A DNA stretch of 42,602 bases from a virus, in IMG/VR virus record IMGVR_UViG_3300037467_001116; one strand, written 5' to 3'. The notes beneath the pieces were generated by a model. It had not been told where the DNA came from and made no database searches. It saw only the letters and a list, made by a program, of their open reading frames with translations. This document shows, piece by piece, positions 4,648-42,602 of this stretch. The stretch's first letter is position 1. Every line of letters starts with the position of its first letter. The translations under genes and the position numbers were made by a program.

Positions 4648-4967
4648 CCCCCAGCGAGCGCATCGCCCGCGCGCATCGCGCAGAACGGGCGCTGGAAGAG
4701 TTCATTACGCCGATCCTGGCCGAATGCCGCGAGACCTACACCGCGCGGATTATCGAGGTTGCGGCCACCGAACTGAACCCGAAGAAGCGGGCCGACAAAC
4801 TCACTGCCCTGTCAACGGCAATGCGAGTCCTGGACAGCTTAGAGAACGGGATCCAGGCCGTCATGCTCGATGGGCAGATGGCCGAGAAGGATAGGCTCCG
4901 CGCCGATAAGATGGAGCGCATGACGCCGTCCGAGCGGCGCATCTTCGGACTCGTGCCAACACCATAA
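4644..4967 (+). CDS. Hypothetical head-module protein
   Basis: 107-aa ORF with ATGA overlap to the upstream gene and coding-like codon bias. Confidence 0.55.
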   Translation: MTPSERIARAHRAERALEEFITPILAECRETYTARIIEVAATELNPKKRADKLTALSTAMRVLDSLENGIQAVMLDGQMAEKDRLRADKMERMTPSERRIFGLVPTP

Positions 4968-5121
4968 AAGATAAGAGCGGGGCCAACCCGCCGAGAGTTT
5001 CGCTACCCGCAAAAACGAGCCGCAAAGTGGACGGGGAATGGCCCGAAAGCGAGCCGGTAACGGTCAAAGCCAAGCCGGGGGGCTGCCGCCAGAATGTGGC
5101 GCGGCAATCAATAGGTGACTG

Positions 5122-6129
5122 ATGACCCAGCAGGCTAACGAGCCCGCAGTCGGAGGTGACGACCATGTGGTTGCTGCCGAACTGACGCCCGAAGACCGTT
5201 TGAATGCGGCGTTTGCCGATCCAGAAAACCACAAGGAAGACGAGGACGATCCGGCAGAGGCGGGGGGTGAAGACCCATCCGCTGAAGATGCCGAAGACGA
5301 TCTGGAAATCGAAGCGGAGGAAGACGAGCTTCCGCCCATCGAGGCCCCGGTATCGTGGGACGCCGAAGCCAAGGAGCGCTTCGCCAAGCTTTCACGCGAG
5401 GACCAGGAGTATCTGGCGAAGCGTGAGGGTGAGCGCGAGCGGTTCGTCCAGCAGAAAGCGCAAGAAGCAGCCGGCGTGAAGCGGGAGGCTGAGCAGGCGG
5501 CAATAAGCCAGCTTGCACAGATCGAGCGCGGCTATGCCCAACAGCTTCAGCAGATTGCCGCCCAGTTCGATGTTCCGGAACCGGACATGGCGCTGATCGC
5601 GACCGATCCCGTGACCTACGCCATGCAGGCGCGAGCATATCAGAACGCCCAAGCCCAGCGTCAGCAGACGCAGCTGCAAGCGGAAGAGCTCGCCCGTCAG
5701 GCCCAGGCTCGCGAAGCTGAAGCCGATCGCTTGTTCCACGCGGAACAACGCCAAGCACTCGTCCAACATTTTCCCGAATATCTCGACCCCACGACCGGGC
5801 CGAAGCTCCAAACCGAGCTGTCGGCCGTCGCCAGGGAGTTGGGCTATTCGCCCGAGCTGATCGCGCAGGCCCGCGCCTCCGACATTCTTGCGATGAAGAC
5901 CGCTGCTGAGTGGAAGGTGAAAGCCGACCGCTGGGATAGGGCCAATTCAAAGAAGATGGAGAAGGTGCGCGCGGCCAAGACGCTGCCGAAGACTACGACC
6001 CCAGGCTCAGCCAAGGCCCCAGGGGCGGCGCGGCAAGCGGCATACGCATCAGATCGCGACGCCATGAAGCGCGGGGACAGGGACGCCACAATGCGTGTCC
6101 TCGATAGCTTCTTCACGCAACCCAAATAA
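5122..6129 (+). CDS. Scaffolding protein (putative)
   Basis: 335 aa between portal and capsid. Very acidic N-terminus and long Q/A/E-rich coiled-coil segments. Confidence 0.6.
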   Translation: MTQQANEPAVGGDDHVVAAELTPEDRLNAAFADPENHKEDEDDPAEAGGEDPSAEDAEDDLEIEAEEDELPPIEAPVSWDAEAKERFAKLSREDQEYLAKREGERERFVQQKAQEAAGVKREAEQAAISQLAQIERGYAQQLQQIAAQFDVPEPDMALIATDPVTYAMQARAYQNAQAQRQQTQLQAEELARQAQAREAEADRLFHAEQRQALVQHFPEYLDPTTGPKLQTELSAVARELGYSPELIAQARASDILAMKTAAEWKVKADRWDRANSKKMEKVRAAKTLPKTTTPGSAKAPGAARQAAYASDRDAMKRGDRDATMRVLDSFFTQPK

Positions 6130-17683: not shown

Positions 17684-18423
17684 TGCTGCCTTTCCCCAGT
17701 CCTCTTCTCAGCGTCGTTGTCGCTGGCAGTGGCGCATTTAATCCGACAACGCTTTTTAGCGGAGGGGTCGCTGGCGGATGGTGGGACCCGTCCGACCTTT
17801 CCACTCTTTGGAAGGACACCGCCGGAACATCTGCCGTCACTTCGGACGGCGACGCCGTAGCCCGCATTGATGACAAGAGCGGGAACGGCAACAATCTTCT
17901 TCAGGCAACTCTTGCGAACCGGCCACTCTACAAAACCAGCGGTGGTCTTTCTTGGCTATTGTTTGATGGCTCGAATGACTACGTCCGAGCGACCTTTGCG
18001 ATGGGAACGACATGGGATCGTGTCATGGCCTGGCGCGATGTTTCCAGCGCATTCCCAAGACAATTCTTCGGCGGCGTGTCGGCCAATGAGTGTCTTTATG
18101 ACGGCGGCGCCGGCTCGTTCATCATGTTTAACGGGTCGGCTAACGGCCCGACCATGACCTCGACCACGTCCGATGTTGTTTCGACGGAGCGATGGGCCAA
18201 TCCGGCACCATGCCAAATAGCTGCCGACAACGGTTCCTACACCTCATCGCCGTCCATCGCGGCCGTCAATCCGGGCGGACTAACCGTGGCGGCAAGCAGC
18301 TCTGCCGGCGACTTCACTGGGATCCGCTGGTATGGCGGCGTGATGATCAACAAGGCGCTGACTGGGACGGAAATCTCCGGGTGCCGGACATTCTTCGGCG
18401 CGAAGCAGGGCCGTGTCCTTTAG
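17683..18423 (+). CDS. Tail-associated protein, LamG/lectin-like (putative)
   Basis: Internal ATG (MLPFPSPLL) with TAATG overlap, 246 aa. GNGNNLLQATLANRPLY...LLFDGSNDYV resembles the LamG-type domain found in phage fibre proteins. Confidence 0.5.
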   Translation: MLPFPSPLLSVVVAGSGAFNPTTLFSGGVAGGWWDPSDLSTLWKDTAGTSAVTSDGDAVARIDDKSGNGNNLLQATLANRPLYKTSGGLSWLLFDGSNDYVRATFAMGTTWDRVMAWRDVSSAFPRQFFGGVSANECLYDGGAGSFIMFNGSANGPTMTSTTSDVVSTERWANPAPCQIAADNGSYTSSPSIAAVNPGGLTVAASSSAGDFTGIRWYGGVMINKALTGTEISGCRTFFGAKQGRVL

Positions 18424-19161
18424 CCGCCACGGAAGCGAGTGCCATTCAGCGAGGGTTTTAGGCTCGTCAATCTCAAGACCGACTGCGGGCCATTCATCCC
18501 TCGCTGGCATGTAGAGTGTCCCAAATAGCCAATCCCAGAGCGGGCTAAGGGCCCCGAAATTTTTATTGAAGTGCCGCGCCTCAACCGAGTGATGGATGCG
18601 GTGATAGCGATTGTCGATCAGCAGCCACCTGAATGGGCCGGTGTGAAGCTTGGTAGGTGCGTGAATATAGAACTGCCAGTAATGGAATATCGCAGTCAGG
18701 AAGCCAAGCGTGGGGCCGACCTGGATGCTGACGAAGCATAAGGGGATGGTTAGCACGATCACGCCCCACAGTGCTTCGGTCCAATGGTGATAGGAATTGA
18801 TGGCCGAGAGGTTCCTGACCGAGTGATGCACGGCGTGGAAGCGCCACAGGAACCGATGCTCGATCCGATGCAGGAAGTAGAACTGTAAATCTATCCAGAG
18901 TGCCAGGGCGACTGCGGCGATGATCGGAGAACCGAAGCTCGCCCTCAGGACTATTGGGGGATCAGGCAGCCACTGGCTGACAGCAAGGCTCAAGGCCGCA
19001 GCAAATGGGGCTGCGGCCAAAAGGAACAGATAGCCTCTAGCCCGGTCGCGAACCGGCATTTTATCGCGCGGCAACAGGACTTCGAGCGGCACAACGAAAG
19101 CGGTGCCGATGGCCTGATACGCGATCACGCCGAGAAGCTGGCTGAAATACGTTCCTAACAC
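18280..19161 (-). CDS. Fatty acid hydroxylase / sterol desaturase superfamily membrane di-iron enzyme
   Basis: Three histidine boxes (HRIEH, HAVHH, HRIHH) embedded in hydrophobic segments. GTG start. Opposite strand to its neighbours and visibly lower G+C. Confidence 0.7.
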   Translation of the reverse strand: MLGTYFSQLLGVIAYQAIGTAFVVPLEVLLPRDKMPVRDRARGYLFLLAAAPFAAALSLAVSQWLPDPPIVLRASFGSPIIAAVALALWIDLQFYFLHRIEHRFLWRFHAVHHSVRNLSAINSYHHWTEALWGVIVLTIPLCFVSIQVGPTLGFLTAIFHYWQFYIHAPTKLHTGPFRWLLIDNRYHRIHHSVEARHFNKNFGALSPLWDWLFGTLYMPARDEWPAVGLEIDEPKTLAEWHSLPWRLKDTALLRAEECPAPGDFRPSQRLVDHHAAIPADPSEVAGRAACRHG

Positions 19162-19230: not shown

Positions 19231-19401
19231 ATGACAAGCGACCTATCGAATGGCGCCAAGCATACCTTGGACGCTGTAGCCGGGCTAGCCGCCTTCGCTG
19301 CGCTGGCGAAGATCCTACCGCCGATCGCTGCGGCGCTATCCATCCTCTGGCTTTCGATCCAGTTGGTTGAATGGGCGATCCGCAAGGTGCGCTCTCTGTG
19401 A
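19231..19401 (+). CDS. 56-aa two-helix membrane peptide
   Basis: MTSDLSNGAKHTLDAVAGLAAFAALAKILPPIAAALSILWLSIQLVEWAIRKVRSL. High third-position G+C. Below the track cutoff. Confidence 0.45.
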   Translation: MTSDLSNGAKHTLDAVAGLAAFAALAKILPPIAAALSILWLSIQLVEWAIRKVRSL

Positions 19402-19511
19402 CCAAAGACGGCATCCGCGAGAAGGTCTCTCGCGACCTCCACCGCCTCTACGACGACACCCTTACCGAAAGGATTCCCGACAGCCTCAAACGATTGCTCG
19501 ACCGGCTTTAA
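19371..19511 (+). CDS. NepR-like anti-sigma factor mini-protein (47 aa; alternative GTG start at 19398)
   Basis: MGDPQGALSVTKDGIREKVSRDLHRLYDDTLTERIPDSLKRLLDRL. The L-x-x-L-Y-D...E-x-x-P-D...L-L-x-x-L pattern matches the NepR signature. Good codon bias. Below the track cutoff. Confidence 0.5.
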   Translation: MGDPQGALSVTKDGIREKVSRDLHRLYDDTLTERIPDSLKRLLDRL

Positions 19512-21846: not shown

Positions 21847-22284
21847 TCAAACAACCCAATGTTGACCGGCTTTGCCGTTGTGACTGATGGCGGCCATCCA
21901 TCTACGCATACCGGGGTATTTGAAGGCGCCCATTAGCGTCCCGGACTTCTTGGACTTCCGAGCCCGTCGTTCGTTCTGCCGGTTAGTCTTCACATCGACC
22001 GCCCGAAGGTTTTCCCAGCGGTTGTCGGCCTTGTCGCCGTTGATGTGATCGACCTCTTCTGGCCAATCACCAGTCATGTAGAGGGTCGCGATGCGGTGCT
22101 GGAGGTAGGGCTTCCCGCCAACGCACATGCTAAGGTAGCCGTCCGGCCTTTTGGTTCCGACCGGATCGCCCGGAAAGGTGGCGCCACACCGAACTAGGCG
22201 CTCGAATTTTCCGCTCTCAGGATCGTAGCGATAGCAGCGCTTTAGCGTGGCCAGATCAGGCCCGTTTCCGCGTCTCTGTGGCAT
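21847..22284 (-). CDS. HNH homing endonuclease with a truncated AP2-type DNA-binding domain (frameshifted; see finding)
   Basis: VDHINGDKADNRWENLRAV is an HNH motif. RRWMAAISHNGK begins an AP2 domain, and its remainder (VNIGLFDTEIEAHEAYLERKRQIH) continues in another frame down to 21777. Confidence 0.7.
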   Translation of the reverse strand: MPQRRGNGPDLATLKRCYRYDPESGKFERLVRCGATFPGDPVGTKRPDGYLSMCVGGKPYLQHRIATLYMTGDWPEEVDHINGDKADNRWENLRAVDVKTNRQNERRARKSKKSGTLMGAFKYPGMRRWMAAISHNGKAGQHWVV

Positions 22285-24904: not shown

Positions 24905-25318
24905 CTAAGGGGCGCGCAGACGCTCGATCTCGGCTTCGATCTCGAGACAACGCTCGAACCATTCGCCGTGGAGACGGTGAGCAGCGAAGCGCCTGTGATA
25001 GGTGCGTTCGCGCAGCAATCCTCCAGGTGCCGTCGCCAGCAATTCTAGCCGGACGGGCGAGTTGACCTGCATGTGACTGAGGCGGTTACGGACGTGATTA
25101 GCATAGCCAATCTTGACCACGTTGAGTCCAGCAGCGCCGACGAAATAGCAAGACCCTTCAATGTGATTCTGAAGGTTCAGCGCGCTAGCATAGGCTTGGG
25201 CATACTCGTCGCTTTCGGGGTCGGGCAGATAGACGTATTCGGTGTCGCGCCGGAACCTCCAGCGCTGTTTGCCGTGCCTGTCCAGGAACGTCGAAACGTA
25301 TGGATCGAGGTTAGACAC
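24905..25318 (-). CDS. GIY-YIG/T5orf172-type domain protein with an integrase-like N-terminal (arm-binding-like) domain
   Basis: GTG start after GGGAGG. N-terminal LDPYVSTFLDRHGKQRWRFRR...YLPDP parallels the integrase N-terminus LDPYVSAFVDRHHKERFRFRR...YLPNP. The C-terminal half (CYFVGAAGLNVVKIGYANHVRNRL...GEWF) is T5orf172/GIY-YIG-like. Confidence 0.6.
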   Translation of the reverse strand: MSNLDPYVSTFLDRHGKQRWRFRRDTEYVYLPDPESDEYAQAYASALNLQNHIEGSCYFVGAAGLNVVKIGYANHVRNRLSHMQVNSPVRLELLATAPGGLLRERTYHRRFAAHRLHGEWFERCLEIEAEIERLRAP

Positions 25319-25492
25319 TTGCCGCCTCCCGCTTTGGGGCGGAACACGCCATTTCGGGAAGGTTAGACAGCTCCGAGCGTTGATTTCCTTGACTAAGCGC
25401 AGTCCCTCTGCCCCTGCCATGTCCGCCGAATAGCGACAGTTTTCCGCCAATTCTCGACGGGTTAGACAATCGCGCTACCCCAAGGTTAGCCA
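25309..25492 (+). promoter_or_regulatory. Candidate attP region with four direct GGTTAG(A/C)CA repeats (arm-type-site candidates)
   Basis: GGTTAGACA at 25309, 25361 and 25460, and GGTTAGCCA at 25484, all in one orientation. They sit in and around the noncoding gap between the int stop and the GIY-YIG start. Confidence 0.45.
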
Positions 25493-26556
25493 ATGTTCGT
25501 CTCCCGTTCCCACTCGATAACCTCGACCAGAGCGCTTTCTGCGAGCGCCTTCTGATTAGCGCCGGCCACGTAAACGGCGACCTCGCGATCCCCTGACCAT
25601 TGGCCGAGCGCCTTGAGTCCCTGCTGCGATACGTGGCGGTCAGCCGCGCGACGGGCCAGCGCCTTCCGCAGCCCGTGCGCCGTGCATTGCGGCAGCCCGG
25701 CGTCGTCGCACCATTCCCTGACCTTGTTCCCGAACCCGCCGACCGTGAACGGCTTGCCGTATTCGGTCACGAGCAGGGTCGTGATGCCCACAGTCGGCAT
25801 GGCGTCTATCGCCGCCTGGAGCTGCGGCGCAACGGGCAAATCCTGATCCTTGCCGGTCTTCTTCGCCGTGAAGGCAATGCGCCCGTTCTTCGGTGGTGCG
25901 GCCCTGTGAGCATCGCTCCGGCGCTTGCCCGTCCACAGGATCAGCTCCATCGCCAGCCTAGCCTTGGTGCCGAGCGGCCAGTAGGCGCGATATTGGGCGA
26001 TCTCTTCCTCAGTCCATTCGTGGAAGCCTACCTTCTTGTGCTTGACGGTCTCGGATTTCTCCACGGGGTTGTCGCTTCGCCATTCCTGGCGCACCGCGAA
26101 GTCGAAGAATATCTCCAACTGCTCGCGGAGCCTCAGCGCCGCATGGGATCCACCGATCCAGCGGCGGCCGACTTTCTTGCGGGTCAGTTTGGCGGCAATG
26201 ATGGCGTCAATGTCCTTCGGACGGAACGCGGCCACGGGATCATCGCCAAACTCTTCGCGGAAGCCCTCTAGCACTCGCCTGCGGGTCGCCTTCCATTCAT
26301 CGCTCCCTTGGCGGAAGCCGACGCTGGCGTAGAACCGCGGCATCAGGTCGCCAACGGTTCCGGGCTTGGCGCGGGGCGTGATGGGGATTGAGCCGAGCGC
26401 CTTCAGCGTGGCCTCTTCGTAAGCCGCCCGATAGTCCTTGCTCGTCGGGTTCGGCAGGTAGCAAGAGAAGCCGTTGCGCCTGAAGCGGAACCGCTCCTTA
26501 TGGTGGCGATCCACGAACGCTGAGACGTAAGGGTCGAGCTTGCGCTTCCTAGCCAT
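25486..26556 (-). CDS. int: Tyrosine recombinase / phage integrase
   Basis: 356 aa. C-terminal catalytic region has R (GKRRSD), HGLRK, and GQW/Y motifs (AHGLRKALARRAAD...LGQWSGDREVAVY). Confidence 0.85.
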   Translation of the reverse strand: MARKRKLDPYVSAFVDRHHKERFRFRRNGFSCYLPNPTSKDYRAAYEEATLKALGSIPITPRAKPGTVGDLMPRFYASVGFRQGSDEWKATRRRVLEGFREEFGDDPVAAFRPKDIDAIIAAKLTRKKVGRRWIGGSHAALRLREQLEIFFDFAVRQEWRSDNPVEKSETVKHKKVGFHEWTEEEIAQYRAYWPLGTKARLAMELILWTGKRRSDAHRAAPPKNGRIAFTAKKTGKDQDLPVAPQLQAAIDAMPTVGITTLLVTEYGKPFTVGGFGNKVREWCDDAGLPQCTAHGLRKALARRAADRHVSQQGLKALGQWSGDREVAVYVAGANQKALAESALVEVIEWERETNIG

Positions 26557-26734
26557 GGTGAAGCCTGTCCAGCGGGTTGGCCCTATCGTTCGCCGCCTCT
26601 TCCGCCGCCGTCAACATCTGCGCTTCGATTTCTCCGGATAACTTGATCGTCGCCCGCACTCGCACGTCCGCCTTCCGAGCCGCCTTGAACAGGCGCTCCA
26701 GGTCGGCTTGCGAGAAGCGGGCGCGGGCGGTCAT
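26549..26734 (-). CDS. Hypothetical protein upstream of int
   Basis: Internal ATG (MTARARFSQADLERLF) with ATGA overlap to the upstream gene, 61 aa. Confidence 0.4.
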   Translation of the reverse strand: MTARARFSQADLERLFKAARKADVRVRATIKLSGEIEAQMLTAAEEAANDRANPLDRLHHG

Positions 26735-27012
26735 CGACGCAGTTGCCCGCAGGTTTCGCATTTGGGCGGCTTGTCTAGGCGGTGATCGCGGCGCCATGCT
26801 TCGATAAGCGCTTGGAGGGCGTAGCCCGTGCTGCCGCTCAGGATGCGGTCGCGGTAGAGGTAGCGATATTGCGGCTTTATCAGCTTTAAGTCGCCAATGA
26901 GTTCCATTGTGACGCGGCGACCATAGGCACGCAGGCAGCGCGAGGGATTGAAGCGGGAACCGGCGAGACGCGCAGCGCCTCGATCCCGAAGGCTATAGAA
27001 CAGCGCTTTCAT
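26731..27012 (-). CDS. Hypothetical protein
   Basis: Internal ATG (MKALFYSL) with ATGA overlap to the HNH gene stop, 93 aa. Confidence 0.45.
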   Translation of the reverse strand: MKALFYSLRDRGAARLAGSRFNPSRCLRAYGRRVTMELIGDLKLIKPQYRYLYRDRILSGSTGYALQALIEAWRRDHRLDKPPKCETCGQLRR

Positions 27013-27521
27013 AGTGATGCCCACCTGCGACCCGACCTGATTTGTCGGACGGTAGCCTCACCTAGGCCCATCTCGCGGGCGAGGCCCCTGTGACTCTTCG
27101 AGGAGGCGCGGATAGCTAGAACTTCAGCTGCCGTCAGTTTGGCACGTGGGTGCCTTTCGCCAGCCTGGTGGGTACCGTGGGCCACCTTGTGAGATGCGTT
27201 CTCGCGAGGGCTGACCCACTTTAGGTTCTCAACGCGATTATCAGTCTTGTCACCATTCAGGTGCGCCACATCGCGGTGCAGGGCGTTCTTTTTGTCGGCA
27301 AGGAACGCGAGCGCCACCAAGCGATGAACCTTGTGGCGCTTTGCCGATCCGTTGTTGGTCAGCAAAACGCAGCGATAGCCGTATCTATCAACCGAGCCGC
27401 GCATGTAACCATCGCCCCGCCTAGCGTGCAGGGAATAGACGCGCCCCAGGCTTGAGACTTGATACAGTCCCTCGTGGCCCGCGACAGGCCGCCACTCCTC
27501 GCGAAGCACGCGCCCAATCAC
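27009..27521 (-). CDS. HNH homing endonuclease (NUMOD4-like N-terminus, C-terminal HTH)
   Basis: EEWRPVAGHEGLYQVSSLGRVYS (NUMOD4-like), HRLVALAF...HLNGDKTDNRVENLKW (HNH), and C-terminal GLAREMGLGEATVRQI. GTGA-coupled GTG start. Confidence 0.7.
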   Translation of the reverse strand: MIGRVLREEWRPVAGHEGLYQVSSLGRVYSLHARRGDGYMRGSVDRYGYRCVLLTNNGSAKRHKVHRLVALAFLADKKNALHRDVAHLNGDKTDNRVENLKWVSPRENASHKVAHGTHQAGERHPRAKLTAAEVLAIRASSKSHRGLAREMGLGEATVRQIRSGRRWASL

Positions 27522-27616
27522 CGCCACCGCCACATTGGAGGCATACCGCAGCCGATGCACACGATGCTGACCAGCAGGCAGCCAATCGCGCCGGCGAGAT
27601 GATCGAGGAGTTTCAT
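27518..27616 (-). CDS. 32-aa membrane peptide (micro-ORF)
   Basis: MKLLDHLAGAIGCLLVSIVCIGCGMPPMWRWR. ATGA overlap upstream and GTGA overlap downstream. Confidence 0.3.
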   Translation of the reverse strand: MKLLDHLAGAIGCLLVSIVCIGCGMPPMWRWR

Positions 27617-27771
27617 CGGGATAGTGCCCGTAAGGCTGCTGCGCGGCACTTCCGGCCTTCCGCAAGAGCCCGCAGCTGGGCCAAACGCATCATCGCTAAG
27701 AGGATAGCCAGCGGCACAAACACTAGCGCCATGCCGCCTGCGATCATCAGCCATTCGTCAAACGTCGGCAC
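27613..27771 (-). CDS. 52-aa membrane peptide (micro-ORF)
   Basis: GTG 7 nt after GGAG. A TM helix (MIAGGMALVFVPLAILLAMM) followed by a basic tail. Confidence 0.35.
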   Translation of the reverse strand: MPTFDEWLMIAGGMALVFVPLAILLAMMRLAQLRALAEGRKCRAAALRALSR

Positions 27772-29764: not shown

Positions 29765-30579
29765 TCTGCGCCGCCGATCAGAGCAAGGGCCGAGCCGACC
29801 TTGCTACTTGCTTCGTCCACGAACTCTATGTCGGTGACGTTGCCAAACTCGTTGATGTTATCGATCAAGCGCTTCGCTGACCGCGCGGCCTCCACTAACT
29901 CTGCATAGTGGCAAGCTTCGAGGGCGAGCGCTCTGTTGTGGGCCACGAGAGCGTTTTCATTCTCGATTTGAAGATCGAGAGCACACGATAACTGGCGGCG
30001 CTCATCTACAAGGTTAGAAATGTTGCGCTCGACGATGACGCGAAGTTCATCAGCAGAGACGCACATGGCCTCGCCTTCGGTGTAATCATCGCCCGGAAGT
30101 TCCGCGACATCACGCACGATGCCAGAGACAACCCGCTCCACCATTGCGCCGCTATCTGGCTTAATGGGGTCAGGTGCCTGACCTTCAGGTGCGACCGGCC
30201 ATGCTTCTTTGCCAACCTCGGACTCAAGCCACTCGATTTCCTCGGCGCTACGCTCAGGTGCCGCCTCTTGTGGTGATAGGGCGGCTTTGACTTTGCCGAG
30301 TGCGAAGTCGGCTCGGCGCACCAAGGCGCTGACGGCATCCGTGTCTGGCAAATCCTCCTGCTCGACCAGCAGTTGAAGCACTGTCGCAGTTTCGACTAAC
30401 GCCTCCCGCAGCGCCGAGCTAACCCCGCCTTCAGGTGAGGTGGATTGCCGCAGTCGTTGGATTTCGTCCAACAGTTCACCGAACTCTTCAGGGCAATACT
30501 CGTCGATTGCGCTCGTCATGAAACGCCGCTCGAACTTGGCGCGCATTTCTTCGATCTGCTCGTCAGTTATGTGTGTCAT
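29761..30579 (-). CDS. Hypothetical early protein (coiled-coil)
   Basis: Start taken at the internal ATG (MTHITDEQIEEM), 272 aa. Confidence 0.55.
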   Translation of the reverse strand: MTHITDEQIEEMRAKFERRFMTSAIDEYCPEEFGELLDEIQRLRQSTSPEGGVSSALREALVETATVLQLLVEQEDLPDTDAVSALVRRADFALGKVKAALSPQEAAPERSAEEIEWLESEVGKEAWPVAPEGQAPDPIKPDSGAMVERVVSGIVRDVAELPGDDYTEGEAMCVSADELRVIVERNISNLVDERRQLSCALDLQIENENALVAHNRALALEACHYAELVEAARSAKRLIDNINEFGNVTDIEFVDEASSKVGSALALIGGAE

Positions 30580-31174
30580 GGGGTTGCCTTGGGTGGGTGA
30601 TTGGGGGTGTTGGGCGATGCTCGCGATAAAATTGCGCGCTTCGGATTGCCCTGCATGTGGCGCACTGCCGGGCGCCATTGACCGCATAAACGTAGACGTT
30701 GTCCGGTGTCAGAGCGTGACCGTGGACGCAATGAGAGCGGCGGCGATCCTTCGTAGATCGTCCCTTCCGAACCATATCATCTGCGTTGTCTTGCTTGCTT
30801 CCGACAAACAGGTGTGCCGGGTTAACGCATTCGGGGTTATCGCAGCTGTGGCATGCCAGCATCCCAGGCGGGAAGTCTGCACCGTGGTGCATTTCCCATG
30901 AGATGTGCGTGGCCGCGCGCACCTTCCCATTGTGCCCGATCCTGCCATATCCATCTACGGTTTTAGAACCCAGCCAAGTCCAGCAATCGTCCCGACCGCG
31001 GCGTTCGACCTTTTCCCAAAACCTTTCTTCGAGCGACCTAGGCTTAGGTCGAGTCTGACCAAGTTGAGAGATGTTGAAGCAGTGCCTTGAGCAATACCGC
31101 CCCCGCCCCTCTCGTATACGGTAGGGCCAAGTCTGGAAGTCTCGGCCGCACTGATGGCAAGTGGCCGGTATCAT
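30563..31174 (-). CDS. HNH endonuclease (zinc-finger type)
   Basis: CWTWLGSKTVDGYGRI...ACHSCDNPECVNPAHLFVGSKQDNADDM is a typical HNH homing-endonuclease core. N-terminal CxxC...CxxxC. Confidence 0.7.
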   Translation of the reverse strand: MIPATCHQCGRDFQTWPYRIREGRGRYCSRHCFNISQLGQTRPKPRSLEERFWEKVERRGRDDCWTWLGSKTVDGYGRIGHNGKVRAATHISWEMHHGADFPPGMLACHSCDNPECVNPAHLFVGSKQDNADDMVRKGRSTKDRRRSHCVHGHALTPDNVYVYAVNGARQCATCRAIRSAQFYREHRPTPPITHPRQPHDTHN

Positions 31175-33100: not shown

Positions 33101-33315
33101 GAATTGCTGGCGGACGGCTTATTAGGCGCGTCCGCCTCCCTGGTGTTCGGTTGCGAAAGCGATGGAAGCCCGGAGGGGCTAGACACCGAAGAGTGGCTAG
33201 ACGGCGAAGCCGCGACAGCGCGGCGCGAAGCGTTCGCCCAAATGAGGTCGCAGAAGTCAGCTACATCACTGCCCCTCACACTCTCCCCCAAATCATATTG
33301 GAAAGGGTTACGCAT
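33097..33315 (-). CDS. Hypothetical protein
   Basis: Internal ATG (MRNPFQYDL), 72 aa, S/P-rich tail. Confidence 0.4.
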   Translation of the reverse strand: MRNPFQYDLGESVRGSDVADFCDLIWANASRRAVAASPSSHSSVSSPSGLPSLSQPNTREADAPNKPSASNS

Positions 33316-34045
33316 TATGCTGGCCCCTTCGGGCGTCTGGCTTCGCCACCGCGTGCTCACCCTTGCGGGCCAAGCCTACTCCGTGTCTTGGCGCTCCGCA
33401 TTTCGCCCGCTGACGCGCGGCGTGTTCCAGCTTGGCAATGGCGAGGATCGACGGGCGCACTCCCGGCGCCGCATCATCGAACGCCAGCTCGCGGCGATAA
33501 CGGTTTCCGCCCGCCAAGCGCGGCAGTAGCGCGCGAGGCACGGCTTCCCAATTCGACGGGTCGGTGTTCTGCCTGTTGCCGTCGAGACACTTCAGCGCGT
33601 GGCTGGCGGGAACGGGGCCGTTCGCTTGCTCCCAAACCCAACGATGCTTCAACACGTAGCGCCGCTCATATCCGGTGTGCGGGTTCGCTTCCGGCACACT
33701 GATCTCAACGTAGCCGTCTTTCGACACCCGTTCGTGCCAGAGGTAATTCGTGTTGTGCGGCTCTTGCCCGCGCCTGAATTGCATGCGCCGAGCATTAGGG
33801 TGCCTGCCGCCGCGACCCTCGGCGCACGGCTTGCCCTTGTTGTGCGGAGCCGCACCCTTCTCGAAGAAGCCTGTTCGTCCGGTCTTCCAGCCCTTGCGCT
33901 TGCGTAGCGCGTGCAGAGCTCCAGGCGTAACTTCGCGCCCAAACTTCGCGTTGAAGGCGCGGGCATAGTCGCTAATCGCCATCAGGCGATTGGCCTCCAG
34001 CCACGCCATTTCTGCGGCGCTGTATGGGATGCTGCGGCCCTTCAC
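33308..34045 (-). CDS. HNH homing endonuclease
   Basis: GTGA-coupled GTG start. YVLKHRWVWEQANGPVPASHALKCLDGNRQNTDPSNWEAV is an HNH_3-type core. Confidence 0.65.
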   Translation of the reverse strand: MKGRSIPYSAAEMAWLEANRLMAISDYARAFNAKFGREVTPGALHALRKRKGWKTGRTGFFEKGAAPHNKGKPCAEGRGGRHPNARRMQFRRGQEPHNTNYLWHERVSKDGYVEISVPEANPHTGYERRYVLKHRWVWEQANGPVPASHALKCLDGNRQNTDPSNWEAVPRALLPRLAGGNRYRRELAFDDAAPGVRPSILAIAKLEHAARQRAKCGAPRHGVGLARKGEHAVAKPDARRGQHNA

Positions 34046-34395
34046 GCTGCGGCCTTCGCTTTGCAGTGGGCAGATTGGCAGCGTGCCGCTTCTTCCGGCA
34101 TGACTTTCGCCTCGCACTGTTCGCACCAGCTTGCGGTCGGAACGGCTACCAGCGCCGGCGGCTGACGATCCTCCAGCATGGTCAGATGTTGGCCAACGCG
34201 GGCGCCGTGATTGGCGAGAAGGGTAACGGCCTTTAGCTGCAAATCGGCGTTGCGGACGATCTGACCCGACACACCAACAACGGCCTTGGCGCGCTTGACT
34301 TCCTGCTCGATCTGCTCTGCCGTCAAATCCTCGTCGGACAGCCGCTCAAGTTGCGCGAACAGGTGATTGTTCAAGTCGGTGAGTTTGTTTTTCAT
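34042..34395 (-). CDS. Hypothetical protein
   Basis: 117-aa ORF with a helical N-terminus and a C-terminal CxxC...C...C. Confidence 0.55.
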   Translation of the reverse strand: MKNKLTDLNNHLFAQLERLSDEDLTAEQIEQEVKRAKAVVGVSGQIVRNADLQLKAVTLLANHGARVGQHLTMLEDRQPPALVAVPTASWCEQCEAKVMPEEAARCQSAHCKAKAAA

Positions 34396-42510: not shown

Positions 42511-42602
42511 TCTGGTTCCTCCCGCTCCGAGATGGCGGGCGGGTGATTAACTGGACGGGCTGGCTGCCGAGCGAATGGTCAGAGGCTCAAAGGACTCGCT
42601 GC
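42507..42602 (+). CDS. 5' portion of the junction-spanning 63-aa ORF (continues at nt 1 via the repeat)
   Basis: ATGA overlap with the preceding stop. See feature 1..188. Confidence 0.5.
   Translation, partial: MIWFLPLRDGGRVINWTGWLPSEWSEAQRTRC
42511..42602. repeat. Direct terminal repeat, copy 2
   Basis: Identical to 1..92. Confidence 0.95.

Follow-up and report, generated by a model that had tools for sequence, protein, structure and literature searches.

What could be the function of a protein that joins the N-terminal domain of a phage integrase to a nuclease-type domain, and whose gene starts within what appears to be the attachment site (attP) of the same phage? This arrangement occurs in IMG/VR virus record IMGVR_UViG_3300037467_001116, a stretch of 42,602 nucleotides referred to below as the window. 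Assembled as a circle, the window represents a complete phage genome; it has 42,510 unique bp and an exact 92-bp direct terminal repeat (positions 1-92 are identical to 42511-42602), and its attachment site is therefore expected to be intact. The protein had been singled out in an earlier annotation, here called the sequence-only reading. The explanation that we favour, with about as much doubt as conviction, is a nuclease directed to attP arms that serves either homing or the cutting of competitors, with possible autoregulation through a repeat that overlaps its own start codon. The two genes concerned and their domains are as follows.

24905..25318, minus strand: gene of the chimeric protein, 137 aa, GTG start at 25318 (open reading frame, Pfam, AlphaFold2 model)
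25163..25318, minus strand: integrase-type N-domain, aa 1-52 (BLASTP, AlphaFold2 model, profile search)
24908..25153, minus strand: T5orf172/MUG113 domain of the GIY-YIG superfamily, aa 56-137 (Pfam, invariant columns, Foldseek, hhalign)
25486..26556, minus strand: tyrosine integrase (Int), 356 aa (PF00589, PHROG 1); its first ~50 residues form the domain that it has in common with the nuclease protein

The boundaries given for the chimeric gene in the sequence-only reading are correct, and public gene calling yields the identical 137-residue protein (P0001). Also upheld is the claim that the N-termini of this protein and the adjacent integrase are alike at more than half of their positions: pairwise alignment (BLASTP) is significant and matches residues 3-46 to Int residues 6-49 without gaps, with 25 identities in 44 positions (57%, E=3e-14). 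The remainder had been taken for a T5orf172/GIY-YIG-type module, and it scores above the Pfam cut-offs for both MUG113 (PF13455, 36.5 bits; cut-off 22.3) and T5orf172 (PF10544, 25.2 bits; cut-off 20). An AlphaFold2 (AF2) model computed from a 51-sequence alignment has a mean predicted local distance difference test score (pLDDT) of 94.4 and leaves ~3 linker residues between the domains. In this model the N-domain consists of strands 8-12, 18-24 and 27-31 followed by a helix running from residue 38/39 to 52/54, and the nuclease domain has the order beta-beta-alpha-beta-alpha-beta-beta-alpha. A Foldseek search of BFVD matches the C-domain model to viral T5orf172/MUG113/GIY-YIG structures, with a best E of 9e-11. 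On every test run the protein is a member of the T5orf172 family, and its layout of a nuclease domain plus a separate DNA-binding-type domain (BLASTP, Pfam, AF2) is that of a homing endonuclease. Searches with the nuclease protein returned no family at E<=0.01 among the PADLOC-DB defence models and no match in NCBIfam.

Residues Y58, K69-I70-G71, R79, E104, H108 and E119-W-F are invariant across 42 homologues, and the invariance of Y58, R79, E104 and H108 makes nuclease competence plausible. The catalytic-type set expected of the family comprises a Tyr in strand 1, an Arg that follows the KIG/YIG strand, and a Glu in the helix that comes after strand 3 (E180 in Odn, described below). Comparison of the window gene with its counterpart in locus L006 gave ratios of nonsynonymous to synonymous substitution rates (dN/dS) of ~0.18 (N-domain) and ~0.07 (nuclease domain), with dS near saturation. 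Thus, both domains are kept by purifying selection.

The 167-bp gap between int and the nuclease gene had been described in the sequence-only reading as full of repeats. It is indeed repeat-rich, and with edge overlaps it holds four direct repeats of the TGTCTAACC type; however, the outermost copy lies in the start of the nuclease gene and the innermost over the int stop. The elements of this region, in order from int to the nuclease gene, are listed here.

25484..25492, minus strand: repeat 1, TGGCTAACC, one mismatch, P side; overlaps the integrase stop
25460..25468, minus strand: repeat 2, TGTCTAACC, predicted arm-type, P side (from the sequence and relatives)
25403..25419, plus strand: candidate attP core TCCCTCTGCCCCTGCCA, 17 nt, the same as the 3'-terminal 17 nt of tRNA-Trp(CCA) genes
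25361..25369, minus strand: repeat 3, TGTCTAACC, predicted arm-type, P' side; kept in L107 and L108, variant in L109
25325..25329, minus strand: Shine-Dalgarno-like GGAGG, 6 nt 5' of the GTG, within the conserved attP module
25309..25317, minus strand: repeat 4, TGTCTAACC, predicted arm-type, outermost on the P' side; junction between the int-attP module and the nuclease cassette

Exact copies of GGTTAGACA occur three times in the 42.6-kb window, at 25309, 25361 and 25460, all within 160 bp and in the same orientation; the one-mismatch copy, GGTTAGCCA at 25484, overlaps the int stop codon. The repeats are spaced by 24, 99 and 52 nt. Three relatives of the window integrase were found in IMG/VR, in loci L107 (82% identity), L108 (70%) and L109 (57%). 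The spacings are matched in L107, whose repeat 4 is a variant, and the exact-repeat spans, 151 nt in L108 and 23 and 153 nt in L109, agree with the window layout. The whole stretch from the int stop to repeat 4 is common to the window and these three loci, and no similarity extends beyond it. As to the core, 114 of 120 matching loci in metagenomes are the 3' ends of tRNA-Trp genes (pattern scan, ARAGORN), and L107-L109 carry another tRNA-like 3' end at the position equivalent to the window core. Since the repeats flank a tRNA-Trp 3' end and the stretch is conserved together with int, the gap is, as judged from its sequence, the phage attP, with, in order from int, two P-side repeats, a core derived from a tRNA, and two repeats on the P' side. 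By analogy to the general architecture of heterobivalent integrases, the Int N-domain probably binds the repeats. ARAGORN identified no tRNA in the window, and an Rfam scan of the gap gave a chance-level match only. In a promoter and terminator scan the gap showed no sigma-70-like promoter, nor was a minus-strand terminator detected after int, which is weak evidence only.

Repeat 4 covers the last two bases of the GTG start together with codons 2-3 of the nuclease gene. The GGAGG-bearing stretch GCGGGAGGCGGC just described occurs also in L108, a locus that has no nuclease gene. The corresponding slot of L108 is filled by an unrelated 82-aa Cys-rich open reading frame (ORF; 5227-5475) with the same start as in the window, GTG TCT AAC C, which argues that the attP module supplies a ribosome-binding site and start codon to any cassette in the slot. 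The attP arm (25309-25329) in this way doubles as a translation-initiation region (G/TTG TCT AAC C) for a swappable slot.

The gene itself is a discrete cassette with sharp boundaries and a presence/absence polymorphism at a fixed locus. L107-L109 are without it, and their homology to the window stops at 25329 (L107) and 25309 (L108). An 80%-identical protein stands in L005 and L006, where both the integrase and the tRNA-like att fragment ahead of it differ from those of the window, and the homology of the window to these loci spans exactly 25309..24921 (blastn). Unrelated ORFs fill the slot behind attP in L107-L109, and an HNH_3 gene does so in L110. Locus L237 is a diverged relative in which Int (52% identical), the nuclease (58%) and an upstream HNH protein (50%) keep the window's gene order, HNH-orf-orf-Int-attP-nuclease; its nuclease gene (start ~3114) likewise begins, as (TTG) TCT AAC C, within repeat 4. 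A second insertion point is seen in L008 and L241, where repeats 1-2 at the int stop are immediately followed by a homologous nuclease gene. On the far side of this gene, L008 (240-900) has a further pair of repeats, one of them inverted, and then a tRNA-like core; the P arm of this attP seems partly duplicated around the inserted gene. Two insertion points that each abut repeats would be expected of a nuclease that docks on repeats. Int-mediated exchange at the att core was considered as the source of the module swapping and does not fit, because the junction is at repeat 4 and not at the core.

The N-domain belongs to a large family. A profile of it retrieves 374 representative proteins at E<=1e-3 from 1.84 billion searched, mostly integrases, and it stands at or near the N-terminus in those integrases whose N-terminus was inspected. 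Among the best 150 of the 374 matches, 55 have an integrase core/catalytic region and 13 are T5orf172 fusions, the window protein included; there is also one HNH_3 fusion (P0125), with the domain C-terminal and above the Pfam cut-off, and two proteins (P0145 and P0128) have weak canonical GIY-YIG Pfam matches. P0124 is another representative in which an integrase-type N-domain joins a different module. P0160, P0199 and P0185 were considered as HNH fusions and not accepted, their shared C-terminal module being HNH-like by eye with no Pfam match. The N-domain has no match in Pfam or NCBIfam; Foldseek against the Protein Data Bank (PDB) gave nothing significant with the full model or the N-domain alone, and a profile of 54 N-domains found no significant match among PDB sequences. 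Its likeness to the arm-binding fold of the lambda and Tn916 integrases is therefore topological only. It consists in a position at the extreme N-terminus, a length of ~50 residues and, in the AF2 models, a three-stranded sheet plus helix; a further resemblance is that direct repeats flank a tRNA-derived core in attP. Sequence comparison detects no similarity to the lambda and Tn916 domains and Foldseek none that is significant, and binding of the present domain to TGTCTAACC is a prediction.

The pairing of int and nuclease genes on which the sequence-only reading had remarked recurs elsewhere. Of 83 IMG/VR T5orf172 ORFs of this subfamily, 34 adjoin an integrase and 15 more stand at a contig edge; in three bacterial genomes a complete tRNA is followed, ~100-150 nt downstream, by the gene, at an apparent prophage end. 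Non-redundant loci with an adjacent integrase number 32, and in seven of them the N-part of the nuclease matches the Int or excisionase (Xis) of its own locus, compared with 3.7% of cross-locus pairs, an enrichment of about six-fold (binomial P=1.5e-4). One such case is L011, in which the nuclease N-domain is 44% identical over 52 aa to the integrase of 453 aa beside it (E=2e-10); a tRNA-like core is flanked there by a perfect 22-nt repeat, whose second copy falls within codons 7-13 of the nuclease gene. The geometry of repeat and gene is the same as in the window. Matches to their own integrases are also present in L237, in L023 (41% over 51 aa, E about 1e-6), in L063 (40% over 53 aa, E about 1e-7), where the integrase is convergent and a tRNA-Arg lies between the two genes, and weakly in L009 (E=0.005). 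In L051 (3433-3735 / 4725-5243) and L072 (3023-3379 / 4827-5381) the N-domain is instead 35-38% identical to an Xis-like HTH_17 ORF upstream of int. Pfam calls HTH_17 in the L051 nuclease at 3e-8; the L072 nuclease itself has no match, and its assignment follows from 35% identity to its neighbour. These two proteins appear to be the excisionase counterpart of the integrase-domain fusion. Some called integrase or T5orf172 ORFs run through tRNA-like sequence (L011 4643-6004; the N-termini of P0012 and P0055), and the peptides RTRTCDPRITN, KAEATGSNPVG and GLNLRPHPCEG serve as a by-eye marker of an att core in or beside an ORF.

The sequence-only reading knew of no described system of such kind, and in this it was mistaken, as both Odn (Gp88) of Vibrio phage ICP1 (PMC8263062) and the HNH-AP2 homing endonucleases exist. 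In Odn a T5orf172 nuclease domain follows an N-domain that shares 42% identity with RepA_N from the PLE satellite; cleavage by Odn falls at the PLE origin and depends on the iterons, and the E180A mutant is inactive (Barth, Nguyen & Seed 2021, PMC8263062). T5orf172 genes belong to the homing-endonuclease genes and mark where genetic exchange/recombination has its boundaries; their DNA-binding domains are modular and swapped (PMC10448857). Fusions of RepA_N to T5orf172 that match satellites occur in several phages, with ICP1 gp5 as well as Inny, Muut and Mt1B1_P17 (phages of E. coli) as examples (PMC10448857). The latter paper, from the Odn laboratory, lists zinc-finger and RepA_N domains and mentions HNH-AP2; integrase and excisionase domains are unmentioned in it. 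A literature search found no link between T5orf172/MUG113 and attP, excisionase or arm-type sites.

Odn and the window protein share a C-terminal T5orf172 domain preceded by an N-domain homologous to that of another site-specific protein (RepA_N, 42%, for Odn and Int, 57%, here), and the mimicked protein binds a short-repeat array, the iterons in the former and predicted arm-type sites in the latter. Both are kin to homing-endonuclease genes, with the DNA-binding domain swapped among relatives and the nuclease kept. The similarity of Odn to the present T5orf172 subfamily is at the profile level only (hhalign E=9.8e-5), and the alignment stops just before E-x3-H; E180 of Odn stands in an E-x3-H motif like that of E104-x3-H108, and E104 is equated with E180 through this motif. 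The two differ in that the borrowed domain comes here from recombination machinery (Int, and Xis in relatives) rather than from a replication initiator, that the donor-type protein and its sites adjoin the gene in the same genome whereas Odn targets a foreign satellite, and that the phage is temperate, in contrast to the lytic vibriophage of Odn. What would be new, by comparison with these systems, is an address taken from neighbouring recombination machinery and a gene embedded in attP; the logic of T5orf172 plus a borrowed domain is already known.

The comparison extends to other enzymes. The T4 proteins I-TevI and Seg share the two-module construction of nuclease and DNA-binding domain, and the free-standing T4 GIY-YIG enzymes share presence or absence between related phages and a gene beside the presumed target. 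In I-TevI, too, a binding site lies over the protein's own expression signals, with autorepression there and the predicted repeat-4 overlap here. Unlike I-TevI and Seg, the window protein has the reverse domain order (DNA-binding domain N-terminal) and a very short linker, belongs to the T5orf172 subfamily (KIG for YIG), and carries an integrase-type domain in place of helix-turn-helix (HTH), Zn-finger or NUMOD domains. The HNH-AP2 enzymes (Magnani et al. 2004, as cited in PMC10448857) combine a homing-type nuclease with a small beta-sheet DNA-binding domain also seen at integrase N-termini; their nuclease is of another superfamily, AP2 is Pfam-recognised and the present N-domain is not, and no pairing with an adjacent cognate integrase or attP is reported for them. 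Excisionases and recombination directionality factors (RDFs) are likewise small proteins encoded by int/attP that plausibly bind att arms, and L051 and L072 have the HTH_17 N-domain. The window protein nevertheless falls outside the definition of this group, having a conserved nuclease domain and an Int-type N-domain that is not HTH, and it is dispensable in close int-attP relatives.

Taken with these comparisons, the window gene most probably acts like an Odn-type or homing-type nuclease. The sequence-only reading had offered three guesses, of which a nuclease aimed at the attP of incoming relatives fits best, given the conserved catalytic-type residues, the purifying selection, the cassette, the other nuclease fusions and Odn. 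The integrase-family N-domain would dock the protein on the TGTCTAACC arm-type repeats of attP, and the tightly tethered T5orf172 domain would cut no more than one or two turns away from the repeat so occupied. Its probable substrate would be the attP flank of related phages that have the same Int/arm-site system and lack the cassette. Such a cut might destroy the competitor, or its repair from the nuclease-carrying genome might spread the cassette, as in homing or marker exclusion. In the phage's own genome the cassette replaces the sequence beyond repeat 4, which could provide self-immunity. As repeat 4 overlies the ribosome-binding region and start codon, Int or the nuclease bound there would shut off nuclease synthesis, as in I-TevI autorepression. 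DNA binding, cleavage, the identity of the substrate and self-immunity are here deduced from sequence and by analogy. The only exact repeats in the window are those of its own attP, and the L005/L006 fragments are without the repeat, the latter being compatible with a foreign target.

Several points weigh against a nuclease directed at attP arms. The phage's own attP keeps all four repeats, as attL/attR would in a lysogen, so that a nuclease guided by them would have to spare its own genome by a mechanism that is conjectural, a candidate being the cassette's replacement of the sequence beyond repeat 4. Binding and cleavage, moreover, are deductions. The cassette stands beside integrases of other families in L006, L238 and probably L007, and no TGTCTAAC occurs in the L005-L007 contigs, L238 having been left out of this search. 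No N-part similarity to Int or Xis is detectable at 25 of the 32 integrase-adjacent loci. Furthermore, the N-domain is not distinctly closest to its neighbour, being 57-59% identical to the clade of the adjacent Int and 52-59% identical to other integrases of the family. Four of five aligned T5orf172-linked N-domains share the signature F-L-DRHGK-x-R-W-R (Leu12, Trp20), which the aligned integrases lack, and this argues for an old fusion and against local copying. The proposal in the sequence-only reading that the N-domain is a copy of the integrase's thus holds as to homology and fails as to freshness. A recent copy of the adjacent integrase is rejected, as the clade of that integrase is not clearly the nearest and as four of the five aligned nuclease-linked domains have a signature of their own; the N-domain is, from its sequence relationships, an older paralogous sub-lineage that travels with the nuclease, sometimes beside integrases of another type.

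The sequence-only reading's other two guesses, a directionality or excision factor and a competitor that gates integration, can be weighed together as a regulator of recombination. The protein would compete or cooperate with Int at the arm sites (directionality, gating, or autorepression/translational repression at repeat 4), and its T5orf172 domain would be a non-catalytic module for oligomerisation or DNA bending. The Int-type N-domain held in common with the integrase, the position of the gene at attP with a repeat over its own start codon, and the Xis-type HTH_17 domain that some relatives bear instead would all suit such a role. That a homing enzyme of the GIY-YIG type can also act as a repressor is shown by I-TevI (discussed in PMC10448857), and as integration would separate the gene from int, its expression could report the excised state. 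Yet a regulator leaves the conserved nuclease residues unexplained: Y58, R79, E104 and H108 are invariant and the nuclease domain is the more strongly selected (dN/dS 0.07). Close int-attP relatives function without the gene, the cassette also adjoins integrases of other types, and we know of no RDF of such architecture. We regard this role as quite unlikely and keep it as a rival. Far more improbable is evolutionary debris, in which the 5' remnant of another, disrupted integrase gene would have been joined to a nuclease ORF by chance and would not be a working domain. The restriction of the similarity to the first ~50 residues and the recombination-prone region would agree with it, but conservation has largely refuted it already, as the fusion is kept at 45-80% identity in many independent contigs (13 of the best 150 N-domain clusters), the fold prediction is confident, the N-domain has a dN/dS of 0.18, and the L237 synteny is kept across about 50% protein divergence.

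A stronger contender, although still an unlikely one in our estimate, is a selfish or accessory nuclease with no link to attP. The site behind attP would then be a permissive 'moron' slot, and the N-domain a generic module with its target elsewhere, in DNA of the host or of other phages. In favour are the unrelated ORFs at this position in L107-L109, the HNH gene there in L110, and the mismatched integrases of L006, L007 and L238. The 25 of 32 loci with no Int/Xis match point the same way, as do the size of the N-domain family (374 representative clusters, common in alphaproteobacterial phages) and the four further HNH genes scattered through the phage genome. Such a nuclease does not account for own-locus matching that is enriched about six-fold (P=1.5e-4) and involves several unrelated domain types including Xis-type HTH, for the overlap of arm-type repeats with the nuclease gene's 5' end, seen independently in two systems (window/L237 and L011), or for the insertion of the gene directly beside repeats 1-2 in L008 and L241.

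A nuclease directed to attP arms, if that is what the window encodes, might be one of a class. Tentatively, and with more doubt than for the single gene, we propose a dedicated class of 'att-directed' nucleases in temperate phages of alphaproteobacteria and some other lineages. In this class the T5orf172 domain would repeatedly acquire the DNA-binding domain of the local integrase or excisionase, and the constrained attP arm sites would be an address not easily mutated away. The nucleases would cut, or home into, phages and satellites that compete for the same integration system, and their expression would be wired to the intact (excised) attP via the repeat over the start codon. If the mechanism proposed for the window gene holds, the Odn principle of re-addressing by a stolen DNA-binding domain would extend from satellite replication origins to the integration machinery of temperate phages, and attP arm sites, held constant by the needs of Int, would be exploited as targets in phage-phage conflict or gene drive. 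A family of integrase N-terminal domains that has no Pfam, NCBIfam or PDB match would gain a definition and a candidate cognate motif, small natural DNA-binding domains, each paired with its site and fused to a compact nuclease, would become available as a set, and a recurrent hot spot of mosaicism directly beside attP would be explained.

The phage is temperate, with a host probably among Sphingomonadaceae-like alphaproteobacteria. Structural genes occupy the plus strand at ~600-21000 and early genes the minus strand. Its other features near int and in the early region are given below.

26549-26734, minus strand: small ORF, 61 aa (longer call to 26797), overlapping the integrase start, the usual excisionase position
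27009-27665, 21847-22284, 30563-31174 and 33308-34126, minus strand: HNH_3-type endonuclease genes (one also NUMOD4), scattered in the early region

No PHROG family matches the small ORF, and its counterpart in L237 shows only 34% identity. The four HNH genes and the T5orf172 gene together make five homing-endonuclease-like genes in this phage. The 4.2-kb region matched no GenBank phage in a DNA search, and tblastn against cultured phages gave only distant T5orf172 domains fused to replication proteins, the full architecture being present in no record. The nearest of these are in Mx8 (NC_003085 9635-9829, p19 'replication initiation protein'), PP947710 (64554-64787) and MZ127829 (3797-4051); the annotations over the three domains are replication initiation protein, DnaD-like loader and DnaB-like helicase, and they may be further fusions to origin-binding modules. 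Precomputed Pfam marks on the identical contig L001 place a gene of the fatty-acid hydroxylase family (PF04116) at ~18280-19161 on the minus strand and a weak NepR-like small ORF at ~19371-19511 on the plus strand. NepR is an alphaproteobacterial anti-sigma factor of the stress response, and the PF04116 gene and the NepR-like ORF are possible host-modulating cargo.

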